Below, piece after piece: positions 49,421-56,928 of a stretch of DNA of 64,000 nt. Source of the DNA: an uncultured candidate division Zixibacteria bacterium. Its GTDB lineage: Bacteria > Zixibacteria > MSB-5A5 > GN15 > FEB-12. The DNA lies in the NCBI GenBank assembly GCA_963707365.1, contig CAVPPI010000009.1:129778-193777 (forward strand), given 5' to 3'. The position numbers were made by a program, and so were the translations under genes. The notes beneath the pieces are model-generated. The model ran no database searches. It was not told the DNA's origin and saw nothing but the letters and a program-made list of their open reading frames with translations. Within the stretch, counting starts at the first letter, position 1. Every line of letters starts with the position of its first letter.

Positions 49421-51769
49421 GTGAAAAAGGAGCATCGGTTGAAACTGGTTGCACGTTTCATCGTTATCGCCTGCCTATTGCTGATACTGTATCCTCACGG
49501 TCGTTTGTTGGCTGCCGACGGCGCCGGGCTGCAGACCGCTCTCAACGAAATGTTCAAAGGTGAACTGGATACCCTGACGACCTGTCACATCAGCGACTTT
49601 GAACTCAAGCACAAGGACCTCGAGATAGTCTTCCAACCCGGCCGGATCGCTTTTTTCAAGCCGGTTACAATCGATGGCTCCGATGTATACTATGCGGCCT
49701 ACTACGATGGTGCCGGGCAGTTCAGGTTTGCGCCCCCTGTCAGAATGGAACAGGAACAACTGAATCGTTTCTTTGCCTCTGATTCGCTCAACCGCTCTTT
49801 TAACAAAATACTGCTTCTGTTTTCATCGCCGATTTACGAGATGATTGTGGCGGCCTGTACGTCCGGCGAGGCATCACTTCATGACAACCATGCCCGTGAT
49901 GCGCGCAAATTGTTCGAGGAGATTACGAAAGACGAAAACCGGGAGTACCTCTACGAAACGCTGAGAGCTATTGTGCAGCCGGGGCAATTACCATATCTGA
50001 TGGTTCATCTGGAGCCGGACAAAAGCGATCCGGTGATTTACGTTTTCGATCCGAACGAGCGGGAGGAAGTAAGGTTTCTCAAGAAGTATGTTCAGTTGGG
50101 CTTCTCATTTATGGAGACTGTCTGCGGCTACTCACAGTACATTGATCCGGGGTATATCAACATAAACGGCCTCGATAAACATCGTATCCGCCCCGACCGC
50201 TATAATATCGATGCCTCGATCAGCCACAACGCAAAGTTTGAGGCCGCCACCGAGATGATATTCGAGGTCAAATTGGGTCCCACTCAGGTGCTAAGGATGT
50301 TGCTGCACCCGGAACTTGTCGTAGACAGTATAACCGACTCGACAGATCAAAAGATTGCTTTTGTGCGCTACGAGAAGGACAAATACAAATCGTATCCGCT
50401 ATATATGATGTTTGACCGTCCCCTGTTTGCAGGAGAGACAGTCAGGTTGAAGTTCCACTATCATGGCGACATAATCGAAAAGGAGATGGGTCAATTCTTC
50501 GTAAGGACCGGTGCGGACTGGTATCCCCGCTACGGGTTCAGGCGGAAGACGTTGTTCACTCTGAATTTCAAAACCCACAAGCAGTATGCTTTCGTAGCCA
50601 CCGGTAACCTCGTGAGGGAGGAGATTGTAGAGGACACTCTCTTTACTACCTGGAAAGTGGTGCCGCCGGCGGCCAATGTCGGATTCAATATCGGTCCTAT
50701 GGAGAAATATACGTTTGAGGGTGAAAAGGTGCCGCCTGTCGATGTCTACTTCTCTAAGGATTTCCACCGCGCCTTGGCTCTGGAGTTGGCTCAGGGGACT
50801 ACCCCGACCGGAAGAAACATGCAAAATCAGGTCGGCGAGGATGTTGTGGAAGCGCTGAAGCTGTTCACACACTATTTCGGTCCTTGTCCATATAATAAAA
50901 TAACGGTGGGTGAAGTCATGCAGCTTGGCCATGAGGCTTTTCCGGGTTTTCTTCATCTGGGAGTCGACACATGGATCAGCACTGACTATGAAGGGTACGA
51001 GCGCGCGAATCGTGCCCACGAAGTGGCGCACCAATGGTGGGGTGTGGGAGTTGGCTGGGCTACCTATCACGATCAGTGGCTGAGCGAGGGGTTCGCCGAA
51101 TACAGCTCCCTGATGTATCTTCAAGCCGTCCTCGGCAACGACAAGTTCTTAGAGCATCTCAAAGATTACCGCACCGATGTCTTCTCGGCCCGGCAGTATC
51201 TGCTCGGTTCGGGTGAGGAGTCGGGGCCGATAGCATTGGGGTATAGAACGGCGAGCACCGAAACCAGAGGCGACTTCGGACTTATTATTTATAAAAAAGC
51301 CGCCCTGGTGCTGCACATGCTCCGTAACATGCTTATCGATTTCCAGACGATGAATGAAGACTTGTTCATGAATATGATGAAAGAGTATTACGGATTATAC
51401 CGCGGCCGTGATGTAACCACTGCCGATTTCAGACGGCTGACCGAGAAATATACCGGTGGTGACATGGGATGGTTCTTCGATCAATGGATCTATTCCAGCG
51501 ATTTGCCAACCTACAAGTTCTCCTACAACATCGAGAAGGATTCTTCGGGCACTTTTACTGCCTACTGTCATGTGGTAACGACCGGCGTGCCCGAGGACTT
51601 CATGATGTATGTTCCTCTGGAAATTGAGATGGACGACAAGACCAAAGCGTATATCCGTATTTTCATCGATCGACCCGATTTCGATTTCACCCTGCCCGGT
51701 TTGAAAAGCAAGCCCCGGAAACTGCGATTGAACCCGTTCGAATCCGTCCTTGCCCGGGTCGAGCAGTAG
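49421..51769 (+). CDS. M1 family aminopeptidase, exported
   Basis: AHEVAHQWWG..WLSEGFAEY, IYKKAALVLHMLR. Confidence 0.92.
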   Translation: MKKEHRLKLVARFIVIACLLLILYPHGRLLAADGAGLQTALNEMFKGELDTLTTCHISDFELKHKDLEIVFQPGRIAFFKPVTIDGSDVYYAAYYDGAGQFRFAPPVRMEQEQLNRFFASDSLNRSFNKILLLFSSPIYEMIVAACTSGEASLHDNHARDARKLFEEITKDENREYLYETLRAIVQPGQLPYLMVHLEPDKSDPVIYVFDPNEREEVRFLKKYVQLGFSFMETVCGYSQYIDPGYININGLDKHRIRPDRYNIDASISHNAKFEAATEMIFEVKLGPTQVLRMLLHPELVVDSITDSTDQKIAFVRYEKDKYKSYPLYMMFDRPLFAGETVRLKFHYHGDIIEKEMGQFFVRTGADWYPRYGFRRKTLFTLNFKTHKQYAFVATGNLVREEIVEDTLFTTWKVVPPAANVGFNIGPMEKYTFEGEKVPPVDVYFSKDFHRALALELAQGTTPTGRNMQNQVGEDVVEALKLFTHYFGPCPYNKITVGEVMQLGHEAFPGFLHLGVDTWISTDYEGYERANRAHEVAHQWWGVGVGWATYHDQWLSEGFAEYSSLMYLQAVLGNDKFLEHLKDYRTDVFSARQYLLGSGEESGPIALGYRTASTETRGDFGLIIYKKAALVLHMLRNMLIDFQTMNEDLFMNMMKEYYGLYRGRDVTTADFRRLTEKYTGGDMGWFFDQWIYSSDLPTYKFSYNIEKDSSGTFTAYCHVVTTGVPEDFMMYVPLEIEMDDKTKAYIRIFIDRPDFDFTLPGLKSKPRKLRLNPFESVLARVEQ

Positions 51770-51774
51770 GTTCT

Positions 51775-52464
51775 TTGGAAAGTTCGATAAGAGTAGAATT
51801 GCCGGAAGAATTCGCTACGCTCCGCGACCGTGAGGGACTGTTGGAACTCTGCCAGTATCTTAAGCAGGCCAATTCTCCAGCAGTCGGCACTCTCGAACAA
51901 ATCCACTCGCAATGGACTATTCTGTCTGAAGAACTCCGCCATGATCAGGCTTATTGCCTCTTTGTGGAGACTTCCGGCGAGAGCGACCATGGCCGACTTC
52001 GCGCCCTGCGGGCAAGTGTAGAGTTATTCGGGAAATCGGCTACGACCGATGAGATCACGTTTGAGAACCAGATAAAGGCCCCCGATGATCCCTTTGTGGG
52101 AAGCTCTTATAACGCTCTTTCATCTCTCCGGGAGTATTTTCAAACCCATGGCTACAAAGACAAGGCGGGCAGATACTACCACGGACATTTCAATTTAGCT
52201 GACAGCAGCCAGACATTCACGGGCGACTCGATCGGTCTTGGAGTGGCGGCGGTAACATTTGCGGGACTTATGAAGACCGAGGTAATGCGTCATGAGCGCC
52301 TCATATCGCAGGAGGTTGCATTTACAGGTGGGGTTGACGAGACCGGTAATATTACGTCGGTTAACGAAGACACGCTCCGTGAGAAGATATCGCGCGCCTT
52401 CTTTTCGCATATCAAATTCCTGGTGCTGCCCGACGGGACAACATCCGTACCGCGGAGAGAATAG
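51775..52464 (+). CDS. Lon (S16) protease C-terminal-like domain; probably the N-terminal part of a frameshifted fusion with 52509-53684
   Basis: TGDSIG (Ser), VAFTGGVD..G.I..V, EK (Lys), LVLP; the expected P..N continues in another frame at 52440. Confidence 0.7.
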   Translation: MESSIRVELPEEFATLRDREGLLELCQYLKQANSPAVGTLEQIHSQWTILSEELRHDQAYCLFVETSGESDHGRLRALRASVELFGKSATTDEITFENQIKAPDDPFVGSSYNALSSLREYFQTHGYKDKAGRYYHGHFNLADSSQTFTGDSIGLGVAAVTFAGLMKTEVMRHERLISQEVAFTGGVDETGNITSVNEDTLREKISRAFFSHIKFLVLPDGTTSVPRRE

Positions 52465-52508
52465 TTGGCGAGCTTGATCAGCGGAGTACCCGACGGCGGA
52501 CCCTTCAT

Positions 52509-53684
52509 GTGGTTGCGTATTCTCGGTTGGCCGATATTCTGGACGACAAGAACGTGGTTCGTTCCGAGAAGGTGTGTATTGGTCAGTATGTTGCCCGCAA
52601 GGCGGTGCGCTACAGCCGCGCGACTCATATCCAGGTGCCGATACTTCTGGCGCTGGCATACCTGTTGATCAGCCTTATCTATCCGAAAGCGTGGGTGGGG
52701 TTTGATGATAATCCGGCTTATGTGAAACCGACAAAAAATGGGTTCATAGCGGTGAATGTGAACTCGACGCCTCTGTGGTCTAAAACGTACGATGTGGATT
52801 CGCTGGCCTCCGCCCGGACTTACACCATTGGCGATCTCGATTCTGATGGCAAGAATGAAGTGGCTTTCGTCCCCAAACCCGGGCTTTCATCTAACATGGA
52901 AGCCGTTTTGTACTTGTACGATCACGACGGCAAAGAGTTGTTCGCGAGACCTTGCACAATCGAGGCTGAGTACCCCGGCGATTCTACTGCTGATTTGAAT
53001 TACTATCCATCGACCGTGGAGTTTGTTCAGACCGACAAAGGCGTACGGATAGTATGTTGTGTGTGCCGAGAATATCCTGCCCGAACTCACATCACGGTGT
53101 GGAACTCGGATGGCGAGAGTCTGGGATGGTACATCAACTCCGGATTTGCCCACCAACGGGGAGTGCTTGAGTCCGGCGCCGCTGGCGGGCAAAAACTGCT
53201 GGTTTTTACCTGCACCAACAATCGCGTTGGCAGTTCCGGCCTTTTTGGCTTATACGTTGATTCAAGTTACGGCGTGTCCCCGCCATTCTCTGATACGATT
53301 TACGCTCTTGACGGCGTGACGCGAGGGAACCAGTACTCTTATGTTATGCTGCCGCGTTCGGATGTAAGTATTGCCCTGCGAGCCAGATATAACACAATAT
53401 ACAGGATAGTCTTTGAGGCCAGCGGCCGTTTCATGGTGGATCTGAGTCCACTAACCGATACGTTGAATTACGCCACATACTTCTTCGATGATCGCATGAG
53501 AGTGGGCGGCGTCAAGTTATCAGACGGATTTCATACTCAAAGAGACCAGCTTGTCGATCGGGGGCTGCTTTCCGAAATCAACTCAGGCGACTACACAGAA
53601 GAACTTCTTCGCGCCGTAACCTATTGGACTGACTCTGGCTGGGTGACCGAGGGCCAGCTCCGGGCCGCCGAAAAACCCCACTGA
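52509..53684 (+). CDS. Single-TM protein with periplasmic FG-GAP/propeller-like domain (frame open from 52440)
   Basis: Basic stretch, then TM IQVPILLALAYLLISLIY; GDLDSDGKNEV Ca-loop. Confidence 0.7.
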   Translation: MVAYSRLADILDDKNVVRSEKVCIGQYVARKAVRYSRATHIQVPILLALAYLLISLIYPKAWVGFDDNPAYVKPTKNGFIAVNVNSTPLWSKTYDVDSLASARTYTIGDLDSDGKNEVAFVPKPGLSSNMEAVLYLYDHDGKELFARPCTIEAEYPGDSTADLNYYPSTVEFVQTDKGVRIVCCVCREYPARTHITVWNSDGESLGWYINSGFAHQRGVLESGAAGGQKLLVFTCTNNRVGSSGLFGLYVDSSYGVSPPFSDTIYALDGVTRGNQYSYVMLPRSDVSIALRARYNTIYRIVFEASGRFMVDLSPLTDTLNYATYFFDDRMRVGGVKLSDGFHTQRDQLVDRGLLSEINSGDYTEELLRAVTYWTDSGWVTEGQLRAAEKPH

Positions 53685-53828
53685 TTTTTCTACAAATCTT
53701 CTCTTTAGCTGCTATTACATCTGCAGAAGCAGCCCACCAATGCGGTTCGCAGTCAACTCAACGAACGAGTGCCGAATGCGGATCATGGCAGCAGATGGGC
53801 ACTTATACCAAAAAATAGGGAGGCCTAA

Positions 53829-55811
53829 ATGTTACGGACCAAGTCCATAGCTATTGTCACAATTGTGGCCGCGCTCGCGATCTCACTGTTAGTGTCCAGC
53901 TGTTCGAATGAAAACCCCGCAGAGTCGTCTGAGCAAGAAACGATAATATCGGGGAACGTAACGGCTCTGGGCGAAAGTAGCGCCGTAGAGTTGGATAGTA
54001 CTGACGGCGTGAACTACTACTTTTCCGTAGGCGGAGACGTGCCCCACCTTAATCCCGGAGACATCATTGTGGGCACCGACAATTCCGGTTTCTTGAGGAG
54101 AGTATCCGCCGTCTCGCAGGAGGGTAGTCTGCTTAGCATCACTACAGGGGATGCTGTTCTAACGGACGCTTTCGTAAAGTGTAGTCTGCAGGCCACAGTA
54201 CCACTGACGCTCGATGACGCGATGAATAAAGCAGTTACCGAACCAGCTAAGGGCGGATATAAAATGGAAGGTGTCTCGATCACAGAAGAAGGTATCGATT
54301 TGAGCGGCGTAACTCTTTTTTCTGACGAGAACAACACCGTAAGAATATCTGGCGGTTATGTGAACTTCGAACCTGTCTTGGATCTTGGCTTTGAAATAGA
54401 GGACCGGGTCTTGAAGGAGTTCCACGCCATCGGGTCTGGTGAGCTAAACAGCTCGCTTGACATTATAGCTAGTTGCGGTTCGATTGGCCTTTCAGGGGAT
54501 ACGATTCTTGCTGAAATACCGGTGGGCAAGACGGTAGTGTGGGTAGAGTATGTGCCGGTAGTGATAACGTCCACGCTCCGGTTTAGGGCTGGTTATGCCG
54601 TAGAAGCTTCGGTACTCGCTCTGCAGGCTGGATATGAGGGCTCTATCAGCGTCGCTTGTGGTGCGAGCTATGAAAACTCTGAATGGACCACTGTTTGGGA
54701 AAAGACGCTAAACTGTGCTGCGCACGATTGTGATTGGATTGAATCACCTAATACACAGGTCAAAGTGTACATTAGACCAGAAATTGATGTGGAGATATAT
54801 GCTGTCGCTGGGCCAAATCTAGGAGTTGAAGGTTACCTTGAGTATTGTGGTGAGGTCGATGGCCAGCAATGGTCATGGACTCTGAGTGGTGGAATAGCTG
54901 GCTACCTTGGTATTCGAGTGCACATCTTGTCTTGGGATTTGGTGGACCGCAGCTGGGAGCTAGTCAAATGGGAAACGACGCTTGCGGCAGATACTGGTGA
55001 AGTAAGTGGGCCGCTTATTATAAGTGAGCAAGACTTTACCGGAGATGGTACCCTTGACATCAGAGCGGACAACGGCGTGATGTGGATACAGATCAATAGA
55101 GATCAGGTACAGCAGGCCGGGCGGTTTATTGACGCAGGCGGGATGAGTGGAAAGGAGAGCTTCTTGCGTAACTTCATACAGGCGGGTGGCTTGGTCGACG
55201 GAGTGGCATATTGGTCAACGCGCAATTTTGATGTAGATGTGCTCGAGAACAGCGCGCAAACGGGCACCTACAGGGTGACTGCGATCGATACCGCCAATGG
55301 AAAGGAAGTTACAAAAGTATTTACGGTAACACTCAACGCAGGTGAGGAAAGCGCATCGATTGGTTATGATTTCACTAACACGGGAGATGCAAGTTGGTCT
55401 TATGACCACCCGCTTTCTCACATTCACGATGGGGCGGCGCTTGCCAACGTGACTTCGTCTGAGACGCTTGATATTGACGCCTATATAAACGGTGTAGGAC
55501 TTATTGGACTTTCTTCAACTGGTTTGTGGCGCAGCTACACGCCCGATAACGAAGCACCCTTTGCCGTTCTTTTCGAACCGTCATCTAGCGAAGCCGTCAC
55601 TTACGGTTTTGATGGGCTTTCCGAACATCCCATGAACCAGATAGTCTCTTACTATACGGGTTTGACCTCCGAAATTACACCGACATTGGATTTTCAAGCC
55701 GCCGAATTTACACTATCCCCAGGTGCTTCCACCCAATGGCGGGCACTCATAGCCTTCCATACTGGTGGTGATACCAAGGGTATCGAAATATATAATAATG
55801 CGACTTGGTGA
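53829..55811 (+). CDS. Large beta-rich hypothetical lipoprotein
   Basis: 660 aa; GGGAGG RBS; LLVSSC lipobox. Confidence 0.75.
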   Translation: MLRTKSIAIVTIVAALAISLLVSSCSNENPAESSEQETIISGNVTALGESSAVELDSTDGVNYYFSVGGDVPHLNPGDIIVGTDNSGFLRRVSAVSQEGSLLSITTGDAVLTDAFVKCSLQATVPLTLDDAMNKAVTEPAKGGYKMEGVSITEEGIDLSGVTLFSDENNTVRISGGYVNFEPVLDLGFEIEDRVLKEFHAIGSGELNSSLDIIASCGSIGLSGDTILAEIPVGKTVVWVEYVPVVITSTLRFRAGYAVEASVLALQAGYEGSISVACGASYENSEWTTVWEKTLNCAAHDCDWIESPNTQVKVYIRPEIDVEIYAVAGPNLGVEGYLEYCGEVDGQQWSWTLSGGIAGYLGIRVHILSWDLVDRSWELVKWETTLAADTGEVSGPLIISEQDFTGDGTLDIRADNGVMWIQINRDQVQQAGRFIDAGGMSGKESFLRNFIQAGGLVDGVAYWSTRNFDVDVLENSAQTGTYRVTAIDTANGKEVTKVFTVTLNAGEESASIGYDFTNTGDASWSYDHPLSHIHDGAALANVTSSETLDIDAYINGVGLIGLSSTGLWRSYTPDNEAPFAVLFEPSSSEAVTYGFDGLSEHPMNQIVSYYTGLTSEITPTLDFQAAEFTLSPGASTQWRALIAFHTGGDTKGIEIYNNATW

Positions 55812-55941
55812 TACTTGTTCATAGCGGATTTGTGTCAACAATAACTCTATGCGTGTCTGATAACGGGGGGAATGATGCTCCGGTGGTGCCCGTAAAGGGT
55901 CCCCGGAGCGTCTTCGCTTTATCCCCCACGGCAGAAATTTC

Positions 55942-55970
55942 TTGACACAAAAGAGGAATGTGAGTATTCT
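55942..55970 (+). promoter_or_regulatory. Sigma70-type promoter with no downstream CDS
   Basis: TTGACA-17 nt-TATTCT. Confidence 0.65.
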
Positions 55971-55976
55971 TAAATA

Positions 55977-56242
55977 GATCCCCGTCTGTCCCTATCAAAA
56001 CTGAGAACCGGTTTCGCAGAACCTTAGGTACCCGCGGACAGACCTCCTCAGTCTTTCGCATCTACGGCGAAACTGGAAATCAGATTAAGACCGAACGGGA
56101 TGCCCTGCTTTATACTTCGGGTAAAGCTGTACTAACAGGCGTATGAAGGCTGGAGAGTACAGCAACACTTGGGTAGTACTGCTCAGTTAGCAGTATTGAA
56201 CCGCCAAAGCAAAAGCCCTCTTAACAGAGGGTTTTTGCTTTG
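55977..56242 (+). ncRNA. Putative structured ncRNA, ~265 nt, family not recognised
   Basis: Promoter and terminator bracket a region with no ORF of 60 aa or more and at least 8 stems; G-U pairs and a cUUCGg loop favour the + strand. Confidence 0.6.
56205..56242. terminator. Bidirectional terminator (putative ncRNA and Smr gene)
   Basis: caaagcaaaagccctc/gagggtttttgctttg. Confidence 0.85.
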
Positions 56243-56262
56243 TATCCGTATCGCATTTGATA

Positions 56263-56544
56263 TCAGTGCTTAAGGTCGACAATGGTCGCACCCCATCCGC
56301 CGCCGCTGCCACCCTCATGGTAAAACCGAACAACATCGGGATGATTAGTCAGGATAGAATGAACGATCTCGCGCTTGACGCCTTTCCCCTTGCCGTGGAC
56401 AATGCGAAGCTTAAATACGCCTCTCTCAAGACACGCCCGAATATACTCCAGAACCACCTCGCGGGTGTCTTTGGGGGCGAAGAGGTGTAAATCAAGGGTG
56501 CCGTCTATCGGGTATTCAACAGGATTGTCGTGGTTTTCGGTCAT
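56263..56544 (-). CDS. Stand-alone Smr/MutS2 domain protein
   Basis: LDLH, IVHGKGKG, GGWGATIV. Confidence 0.92.
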   Translation of the reverse strand: MTENHDNPVEYPIDGTLDLHLFAPKDTREVVLEYIRACLERGVFKLRIVHGKGKGVKREIVHSILTNHPDVVRFYHEGGSGGGWGATIVDLKH

Positions 56545-56571
56545 ATCACACTCTTTGTTGTTCGAACTTTA

Positions 56572-56762
56572 GTGTCAGGTCACACCCCGACTGCGTCGGG
56601 CCAAGCCCTGACACAACGGGAACGGAGACTGCGTCGGGCCAAGACCTGACACAACGGGATTGGCGCTGCTGCTTCCGTGTCAGGTCACACCCGGACTGCG
56701 TCGGGCCAAGACCTGACACAACGGGAACGGGGACTGCGTCGGGCCAAGACCTGACACAACGG
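56572..56762. repeat. Cluster of REP-like palindromic elements (105-bp period duplication)
   Basis: Full elements gtgtcagg...cctgacac at 56572 and 56677; 31-nt core gactgcgtcgggccaag(a/c)cctgacacaacgg at 56589, 56627, 56694, 56732. Confidence 0.85.
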
Positions 56763-56928
56763 TAGTGATTTCCGCTGTCTTCCGGAATTATAAATAGCGA
56801 CGCGGCCATTTCCAACCGGGTTTTTGGCCACACTGCCGGTTGGTCAGGGTTTGCCTTTCCTGTTGACGTAGCCAGGAACTAAGAGTTTATTAAGGGAAAT
56901 TCTCAAATCATATTAGCAAAGGACATCT

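Follow-up and report, generated by a model that had tools for sequence, protein, structure and literature searches.

What is the conserved block at positions 55942-56242 of the window, the 64-kb stretch of contig C9 analyzed here, and where did it come from? The window belongs to a 3.34 Mb Candidatus Zixiibacteriota genome (G000; 97% complete, 3% estimated contamination). A first-pass annotation, made from the letters alone, had read the block as a stand-alone structured RNA, possibly a ribozyme. We compared it with its counterparts in the four other species of the genus (G001 to G004) and with the corresponding gene ends in sister genera.

The locus and its predicted transcript

A sigma-70-like promoter lies on the + strand at 55942-55970, with TTGACA at 55942-55947, a 17-nt spacer and TATTCT at 55965-55970, as had been proposed. 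A promoter scan scored it at 10 of 12 matches to TTGACA/TATAAT, a consensus that may not be the one used in this phylum. In the alignment all five species carried TTGAC(A/T)-N17-TAT(T/C/A)(C/G/A)T; the hexamers and the 17-nt spacing were kept and the spacer bases were not conserved. We predict a non-coding transcript of ~265 nt (55978-56242, + strand), extending from this promoter to the U-run of a terminator and having homologs in all four other genomes of the genus. Its start is placed ~7 nt past the -10 hexamer, which is also where the conserved body begins in the five-species alignment, and its end at the terminator U-run. The segment 56199-56242 (+ strand) is made up of the conserved AACCGCCAAAGCA and, after it, the intrinsic terminator, a G+C-rich 16-bp hairpin at 56205-56242 (stem 56205-56220/56227-56242) that is kept in all five species, with 97.5% of cells paired. 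Since an A-run precedes this hairpin and a U-run follows it, it should be able to terminate transcription in both directions. The stop codon of a convergent Smr-domain gene (56263-56544, - strand; Pfam PF01713, E=9.8e-19), which served as our synteny anchor, lies 20 nt from the terminator. On the upstream side in G000, a terminator-like hairpin (55874-55912, + strand; z = -3.6 for the region) stands 3' of a 660-aa ORF (53829-55811) and separates that ORF from the RNA unit. In G001, G003 and G004 the unit begins ~40 nt past the stop of an M1 peptidase gene, and no terminator was noted between the two. By the sequence evidence, the locus thus has the two marks of a generic intrinsic-terminator small RNA (sRNA) gene, a promoter of its own and a Rho-independent terminator, both conserved across species.

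The earlier statement that the block holds no credible ORF was borne out. The ~230 nt after the promoter were without such a frame: on the + strand at 55975-56168 there was no ORF of at least 30 aa with an ATG, GTG or TTG start, G000 had two to five stops in each of the six frames, and in G003 and G001, as in G000, no frame on either strand was free of stops. The species differed by indels of 1, 2 and 5 nt, none of them a multiple of three, and no small ORF that might explain the transcript was conserved across the five. We also considered whether the block could be a frameshift or readthrough extension of the upstream 660-aa ORF. We rejected this possibility, since many stops lie between them and the 660-aa protein is unrelated to the cargo tail of G028 (see below) or to the upstream genes of G001, G003 and G004.

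Searches for known RNAs likewise upheld the view that the block is undescribed. Rfam 15 gave no hit at gathering score across the whole 64-kb window, so that, as first thought, there is no tmRNA, RNase P, SRP, 6S or riboswitch match here. When E values up to 10 were admitted for 55800-56700, we obtained eight matches, all sub-threshold; six lay on the terminator hairpin and two elsewhere, and the best, ohsC, reached 25.4 bits vs. the 50 needed. SRP, RNase P and tmRNA were found elsewhere in the genome, tmRNA as two full-length matches (C9:10742-11098 and C3:322573-322920, both on the - strand; 210 and 195 bits) that could reflect a second ssrA, a prophage- or island-borne copy, or contamination. 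The 6S model RF00013 had no match in any of 21 genomes from this order; failing to find it in G000 is therefore uninformative, and the 6S RNA of the clade, if there is one, is beyond the reach of that model. We rejected the element as the missing 6S RNA on account of this order-wide blank and of its ends, which do not pair. Judged from these searches and from the alignment, the locus is a conserved, undescribed non-coding element.

The element was present in all five species of the genus, representing four lineages, and in none of 103 other genomes of the family. By BLASTN, all four other genomes of the genus matched, G002 at 90% over the full length and G001, G003 and G004 at 73-74% over the 3' half. 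In 56 other genomes of the family and order the element was absent, and the search returned two short hits, one of them a 29-nt match in G028, which belongs to another genus. With the G001 copy as query, 108 family genomes (47 genera) yielded matches in the genus only, plus two hits within genes for C-terminal sorting domains (CTDs). A motif scan of 185,579 species genomes recovered no copy beyond three already known members of the genus. A looser scan of metagenome contigs gave 17 loci, none of which fit the RNA profile, and we discarded them as chance GC-rich matches. The element is, as far as these genomes indicate, very young and genus-restricted.

Descent from the end of a T9SS cargo gene

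The 29-nt match in G028 sits inside an intact ORF that ends in ...YASGVYFYRLKAGEFSSTKKMVLLK*; a terminator and then a convergent Smr gene come next, the same gene-end layout as in the window. The tail of the encoded protein is a T9SS type A sorting domain (NCBIfam TIGR04183, 48 bits), and the whole is a 3078-aa protein with Pfam domains Big_9, PKD, Y_Y_Y and Por_Secre_tail (L069 2719-11955). The gene order in G028 is M1 peptidase, cargo gene, convergent Smr, and its M1 peptidase is 46% identical to the one encoded at 49421-51769 of the window. In G001 the M1 peptidase gene is followed directly by the remnant and then by Smr, and the ~9-kb gene body is missing.

An Smr ortholog was found in 38 of 40 family genomes, and we retrieved 29 Smr-adjacent loci. 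A CTD HMM built from 43 sorting domains of the G000 genome detected an intact domain (92-104 bits) shortly before Smr in 16 of these 29 loci. We also searched with nhmmer, using a profile of the five copies of the element, and 15 of the 29 Smr-adjacent loci of other genera matched at E<1e-3. The best E values were 1.5e-21 (L040/G028), 1e-17 (L038), 1.4e-15 (L046), 5e-15 and 5e-13, and the matches covered the sorting-domain coding sequence and continued into the terminator. When the same profile was run against the G000 genome, its sole match was the locus itself, despite the presence there of ~48 sorting domains over the TIGR04183 cut-off. Since the profile misses these paralogs, what it finds in the other genera is the positional ortholog and not the domain family in general. 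Homology at the DNA level spanned the whole T9SS domain, with the same order and spacing of motifs, and the intact orthologs in sister genera have a similar hairpin 3' of the gene. These comparisons show the locus to be the retained ~240 coding nt, 3' UTR and terminator of a lost, large T9SS cargo gene, of which the 3078-aa protein gene of G028 is likely the intact form. The first-pass annotation missed this origin: sister genera still have the gene intact, and the sequence is homologous to its CTD-coding part and its 3' end.

The remnant itself is no longer coding. An ORF matching the HMM, as a T9SS C-terminal sorting domain protein would have, was not found: the CTD HMM gave at most 3.3 bits on the remnant in any frame, and the remnant was not among the 61 matches at E<=1 in a six-frame TIGR04183 scan of the G000 genome. 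At the former codon positions, identity among the four lineages was 0.60/0.62/0.62, without codon periodicity, whereas 14 intact orthologs gave 0.74/0.80/0.46. The remnant thus differs from a type A sorting domain (TIGR04183/PF18962 Por_Secre_tail) in lacking both an open frame and the periodicity of one. Elsewhere in the family, the orthologous sorting domain of G029 (L038) carries an in-frame TAG. That of G023 (L024) is decayed, with a stop and loss of the WDA part, and is without the features of the genus remnant; this relic is found at 84% in one of three other genomes of its genus, in assemblies that are fragmented. The end of the cargo gene seems, from these cases, to decay repeatedly across the family.

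The invariant blocks in the alignment of the five copies are GTCTGTCCC, GGACAGA, ACGGGATGCC, TAT(A/G)CTTCGGG, GGCTGGAGAGT, AACCGCCAA and the terminator, and between them lie variable stretches in which indels of 1, 2, 3, 5 and 8 nt occur. Given the homology to the end of the CTD gene, the conserved blocks represent inherited codons (WDA, YASG, AGE) and not newly invented RNA motifs. The promoter region aligns with the first codons of the ancestral domain (QNYPNPFNP). The 3' arm of helix H1 (GGACAGAC; 56036-56043, + strand) stems from the GGA-CAG (Gly-Gln) codons of the motif NILGQ. Its pairing partner, the 5' arm (GUCUGUCC; 55984-55991, + strand), is invariant in all five species, had no counterpart that we could see by eye in one intact ortholog (L006/G028), and looks new in the remnant lineage. 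Block ACGGGATGCC (56095-56104, + strand) is invariant and homologous to codons E-W-D-A, with TGG replaced by CGG in all five species. Block TAT(A/G)CTTCGGG (56111-56121, + strand), homologous to codons Y-A-S-G, is invariant and lies in the loop of a short helix. Reading the alignment by eye, we found a register for this helix with compensatory U-A/C-G changes, and in G001, G003 and G004 the CUUCGG within the block is complementary to CCGAAG at the 5' end. The invariant block GGCTGGAGAGT (56148-56158, + strand) is homologous to codons (K)-A-G-E, an assignment to which the 29-nt BLAST match in G028 contributes. The hairpin Pc, agtactgct-cagtt-agcagtatt (56175-56197, + strand), occurs in all five species and spans the position of the ancestral stop codon. 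The codon-anchored alignment led us to dismiss an 11-nt match of tttcgcagaac to the SQN codons of G028 as coincidence.

Selection and folding

If the remnant were a neutral pseudogene, it should have diverged like synonymous or intergenic sites. Within the genus, identity at 4-fold sites was 24-46% in Smr and 35-40% in the upstream gene of G001, G003 and G004, levels at which synonymous sites are saturated. The remnant was 52-65% identical, even with gaps counted as mismatches, and contained invariant runs of 7-11 nt. Between G000 and G002 the remnant was 89% identical (241/272), vs. 79% for Smr at the nucleotide level and 55% (22/40) at Smr 4-fold sites. The five species also have derived changes in common, namely TGG to CGG, the promoter hexamers, and GUCUGUCC complementing the inherited GGACAGAC. 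The unit is kept behind three unrelated upstream genes: G000 has the 660-aa ORF there, G002 another protein with a sorting domain, and G001, G003 and G004 the M1 peptidase. By these comparisons the remnant was shown to be under purifying selection at the nucleotide level and the unit to be independent of the upstream gene. Together with the conserved hexamers and terminator, this agrees with the original description of a stand-alone non-coding unit on the + strand.

The neighborhood has other features of its own. In G000 only, three ORFs (229, 391 and 660 aa) occupy 51775-55811 of the window, between the M1 peptidase gene and the remnant; none has a Pfam match, and the 660-aa ORF has no NCBIfam match either. 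G001 is without these three extra ORFs and the T9SS-tailed protein of G002 stands in the same place, so that 51775-55811 looks like a variable insertion slot. On the far side, the intergenic region between Smr and an MFS gene (56567-56767) holds a tandem duplication with two ~96-nt copies, 105 nt apart and 93% identical, each made up of two 38-nt sub-repeats and 20-nt inverted arms. A 17-mer core of this repeat occurs four times, all here, and nowhere else in the genome.

The block had been described as densely structured, and we found little in the homologs to sustain this. In G000, 55942-56242 folded at -100.6 kcal/mol, with an MFE z-score of -6.0 on the + strand vs. -3.3 on the - strand. 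Much of the G000 z-score is due to the terminator: without it the score was -3.5, and the four homologs, at -1.6, +0.2, +0.2 and -1.2, folded no better than shuffles or than 15 intact coding counterparts used as controls (mean z -1.15; the copies of the element averaged -1.2). An RNAalifold consensus retained H1 (8 bp), Pc, two short helices and the terminator, and compared to column shuffles it had z=-3.7, with one of 200 shuffles as low. All of the helices listed in the first-pass annotation exist in G000, but only H1, Pc and the terminator hold across the five species. H1 (gtctgtcc/ggacagac) was paired in 97.5% of cells and invariant, and without any variation it speaks neither for nor against pairing. 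Pc was paired in 82% of cells, and in two of its pairs both sides had changed. The remaining proposed helices were paired in 55-83% of cells and were carried mostly by G000 and its near-twin G002. Of the proposed pseudoknots, aactgag with the last-loop ctcagtt was paired in 47% of cells, no better than shuffles, and aactgag/ctcagt was weakly kept (72% of cells, weak covariation, 8/500 shuffles). Pair 139-147 of helix 8 was U-G in all five species and pair 137-149 in three, and the terminator showed single-sided changes of A-U or G-C to G-U; such G-U pairs are possible on the + strand only. A hairpin between H1 and ACGGGAUGCC could be drawn in every species from sequences that do not align, and the 5' end could pair with CUUCGG (6 bp; G001, G003 and G004) or with GGGAU (5 bp; G000 and G002). 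Five sequences from four lineages offer little covariation power, and within this low-power set we did not see the covarying multi-helix fold, stabler than chance in homologs, that defines a structured RNA class.

A probable small RNA and its rivals

We favor, with a probability of roughly 55%, the reading that the element is a genus-specific small RNA gene of ~260 nt, independently transcribed and exapted from a gene or mRNA fragment. A large T9SS cargo gene once stood between the M1 peptidase gene and the convergent Smr, and in one genus its body has been lost. The conserved promoter sequence TTGACW-N17-TATnnT, predicted to be active, now occupies the first ~45 nt of the former domain, and the sequence of the old terminator still closes the unit. 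This route of origin would be the one proposed for OxyS. The RNA would start with a 5' stem-loop closed by the invariant 8-bp helix, built from the new 5' arm and the inherited GGACAG codons; the invariant blocks ACGGGAUGCC, UAURCUUCGGG, GGCUGGAGAGU and AACCGCC would follow, probably exposed, and then the 3' hairpin and the terminator. Most likely such an RNA would act by binding a partner, RNA or protein, via its invariant blocks. Hfq was not found in the 97%-complete genome, and any such action would therefore be presumed independent of Hfq. When we ran duplexfold against the start regions of the Smr, MFS, M1 and 660-aa genes, the energies were within background, in a method unsuited to long RNAs. 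The pattern of blocks may in part have been inherited with the codons and not reflect new function. A more specific proposal, to which we give little credence, is that the RNA acts as a decoy for, or competes for, a factor recognizing sorting-domain mRNA, be it a protein, an RNase or an antisense RNA, which would tie it to control of the T9SS secretome. The RNA would resemble, in the sense orientation, the 3' ends of ~50 T9SS cargo mRNAs, and H1 with the invariant blocks would be the recognition surface. If this were true, the coding sequence of a protein domain would have been turned into a functional RNA within the lifetime of one genus.

The same conservation might instead reflect a cis-acting role where the convergent genes meet at their 3' ends: the element could be a 3' UTR for whichever gene is upstream, affecting stability or processing, or a buffer or terminator zone against collisions with Smr transcription, and in neither case a separate RNA acting in trans. 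This is unlikely, though it deserves some weight: the M1 ORF of G001, G003 and G004 ends ~40 nt before the -35 hexamer with no hairpin noted, the Smr stop lies 20 nt from a terminator that is bidirectional, and sister genera already have the 3' end of a gene at this position. A terminator, however, requires ~40 nt and not 260 conserved nt, and the promoter hexamers are conserved around a free spacer. Furthermore, the upstream ORF of G000 has its own terminator-like hairpin, and G000 and G002 are 89% identical here although the upstream genes of G000, G002 and the remaining three species are unrelated. We consider it quite improbable that the element is a functionless pseudogene fragment whose conservation is due to CTD codon legacy or to locally low rates of mutation or recombination. 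The CTD here is plainly disabled, the same gene end has decayed in G023 and G029, and there is no excess folding stability; as with a unitary pseudogene fragment, relatives have the intact gene and the locus only a disabled remnant. Unlike such a fragment, the element has changed at a rate far below that of neutral sites and has acquired new features common to five species (CGG for TGG, the H1 5' arm and the promoter hexamers). The former third positions are as conserved (0.62) as the first and second, and the contrast of 89% with 55% at 4-fold sites between G000 and G002 also argues against neutrality. With synonymous sites saturated across the genus (24-46%), a remnant that predates the genus should no longer align if it had evolved neutrally.

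Two further alternatives appear very improbable to us. A small peptide could start at the ATG inside GGGATGCC (MP..(I/M)LR..), which is invariant in five of five species and opens, by eye, 11-13 codons in G000, G004 and G001, or some other short ORF could be translated. Yet the ORF lengths are 11, 13, 13 and 22 codons, with that of G002 open to the transcript end, and the species differ in codons 3 and 4 at the first and second positions. The ATG has no suitably spaced Shine-Dalgarno sequence, and a 1-nt deletion in G003 shifts the frame within the most conserved block. A highly structured catalytic or ligand-binding RNA, akin to a ribozyme or riboswitch, would fit the G000 z-score of -6.0 with the terminator and -3.5 without it, the invariant blocks, and a 5' end that may pair with CUUCGG in three species or GGGAU in two. 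Against it, the homologs fold like controls, most helices are specific to G000 and G002, one proposed pseudoknot fails, there is no downstream gene to regulate, and the element is very young and genus-restricted. No ribozyme or riboswitch model matches, and the ribozyme suggested by the first-pass annotation consequently finds no backing.

The small RNA reading has precedents. Type I 3'UTR-derived sRNAs, such as DapZ and MicL, have an internal promoter and share a terminator with the parent mRNA. As in DapZ and MicL, the promoter here lies in (former) coding sequence and the terminator comes from the parent; unlike them, the parent ORF is gone, and by eye there appears to be no internal promoter at the equivalent place in the G028 ortholog. 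DapZ is mentioned in a study of Enterobacterales sRNAs, which also proposes that OxyS derives from the 3' end of a peroxidase mRNA and counts STnc240 and STnc3230, with OxyS, among ORF-derived sRNAs (Krieger et al. 2022, Mol Biol Evol, PMC8825220). Our element resembles OxyS-type sRNAs in being an intergenic non-coding element homologous to the coding-strand 3' end of a protein gene that relatives have in the same slot, and in that the gene body and its coding capacity were lost and the terminator was kept. It differs in phylum (uncultured Zixibacteria), in parent (the T9SS sorting domain of a giant Ig/PKD protein), in length (~260 vs. ~110 nt), and in a promoter that apparently arose within former coding sequence and was not inherited. 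A limited literature search found nothing related on noncoding RNA in Zixibacteria and nothing on T9SS tails in work on sRNA origin.

For genome scans, the locus carries a warning: an orphan intergenic block that is conserved and foldable can turn out to be the relic of an abundant domain, for example a T9SS tail, and candidate RNAs should be compared with the coding sequence of neighboring genera before a new RNA class is named. If the element is transcribed, it would be a clean case, beyond the enterobacteria, of a small RNA born from a fragment of a protein-coding gene; the phylum is uncultured and has no described sRNAs, and Hfq was not found in this genome. Comparison with the sister genera brings out every part of this history, from the parent gene and the deletion to the promoter and the helix arm that are new.
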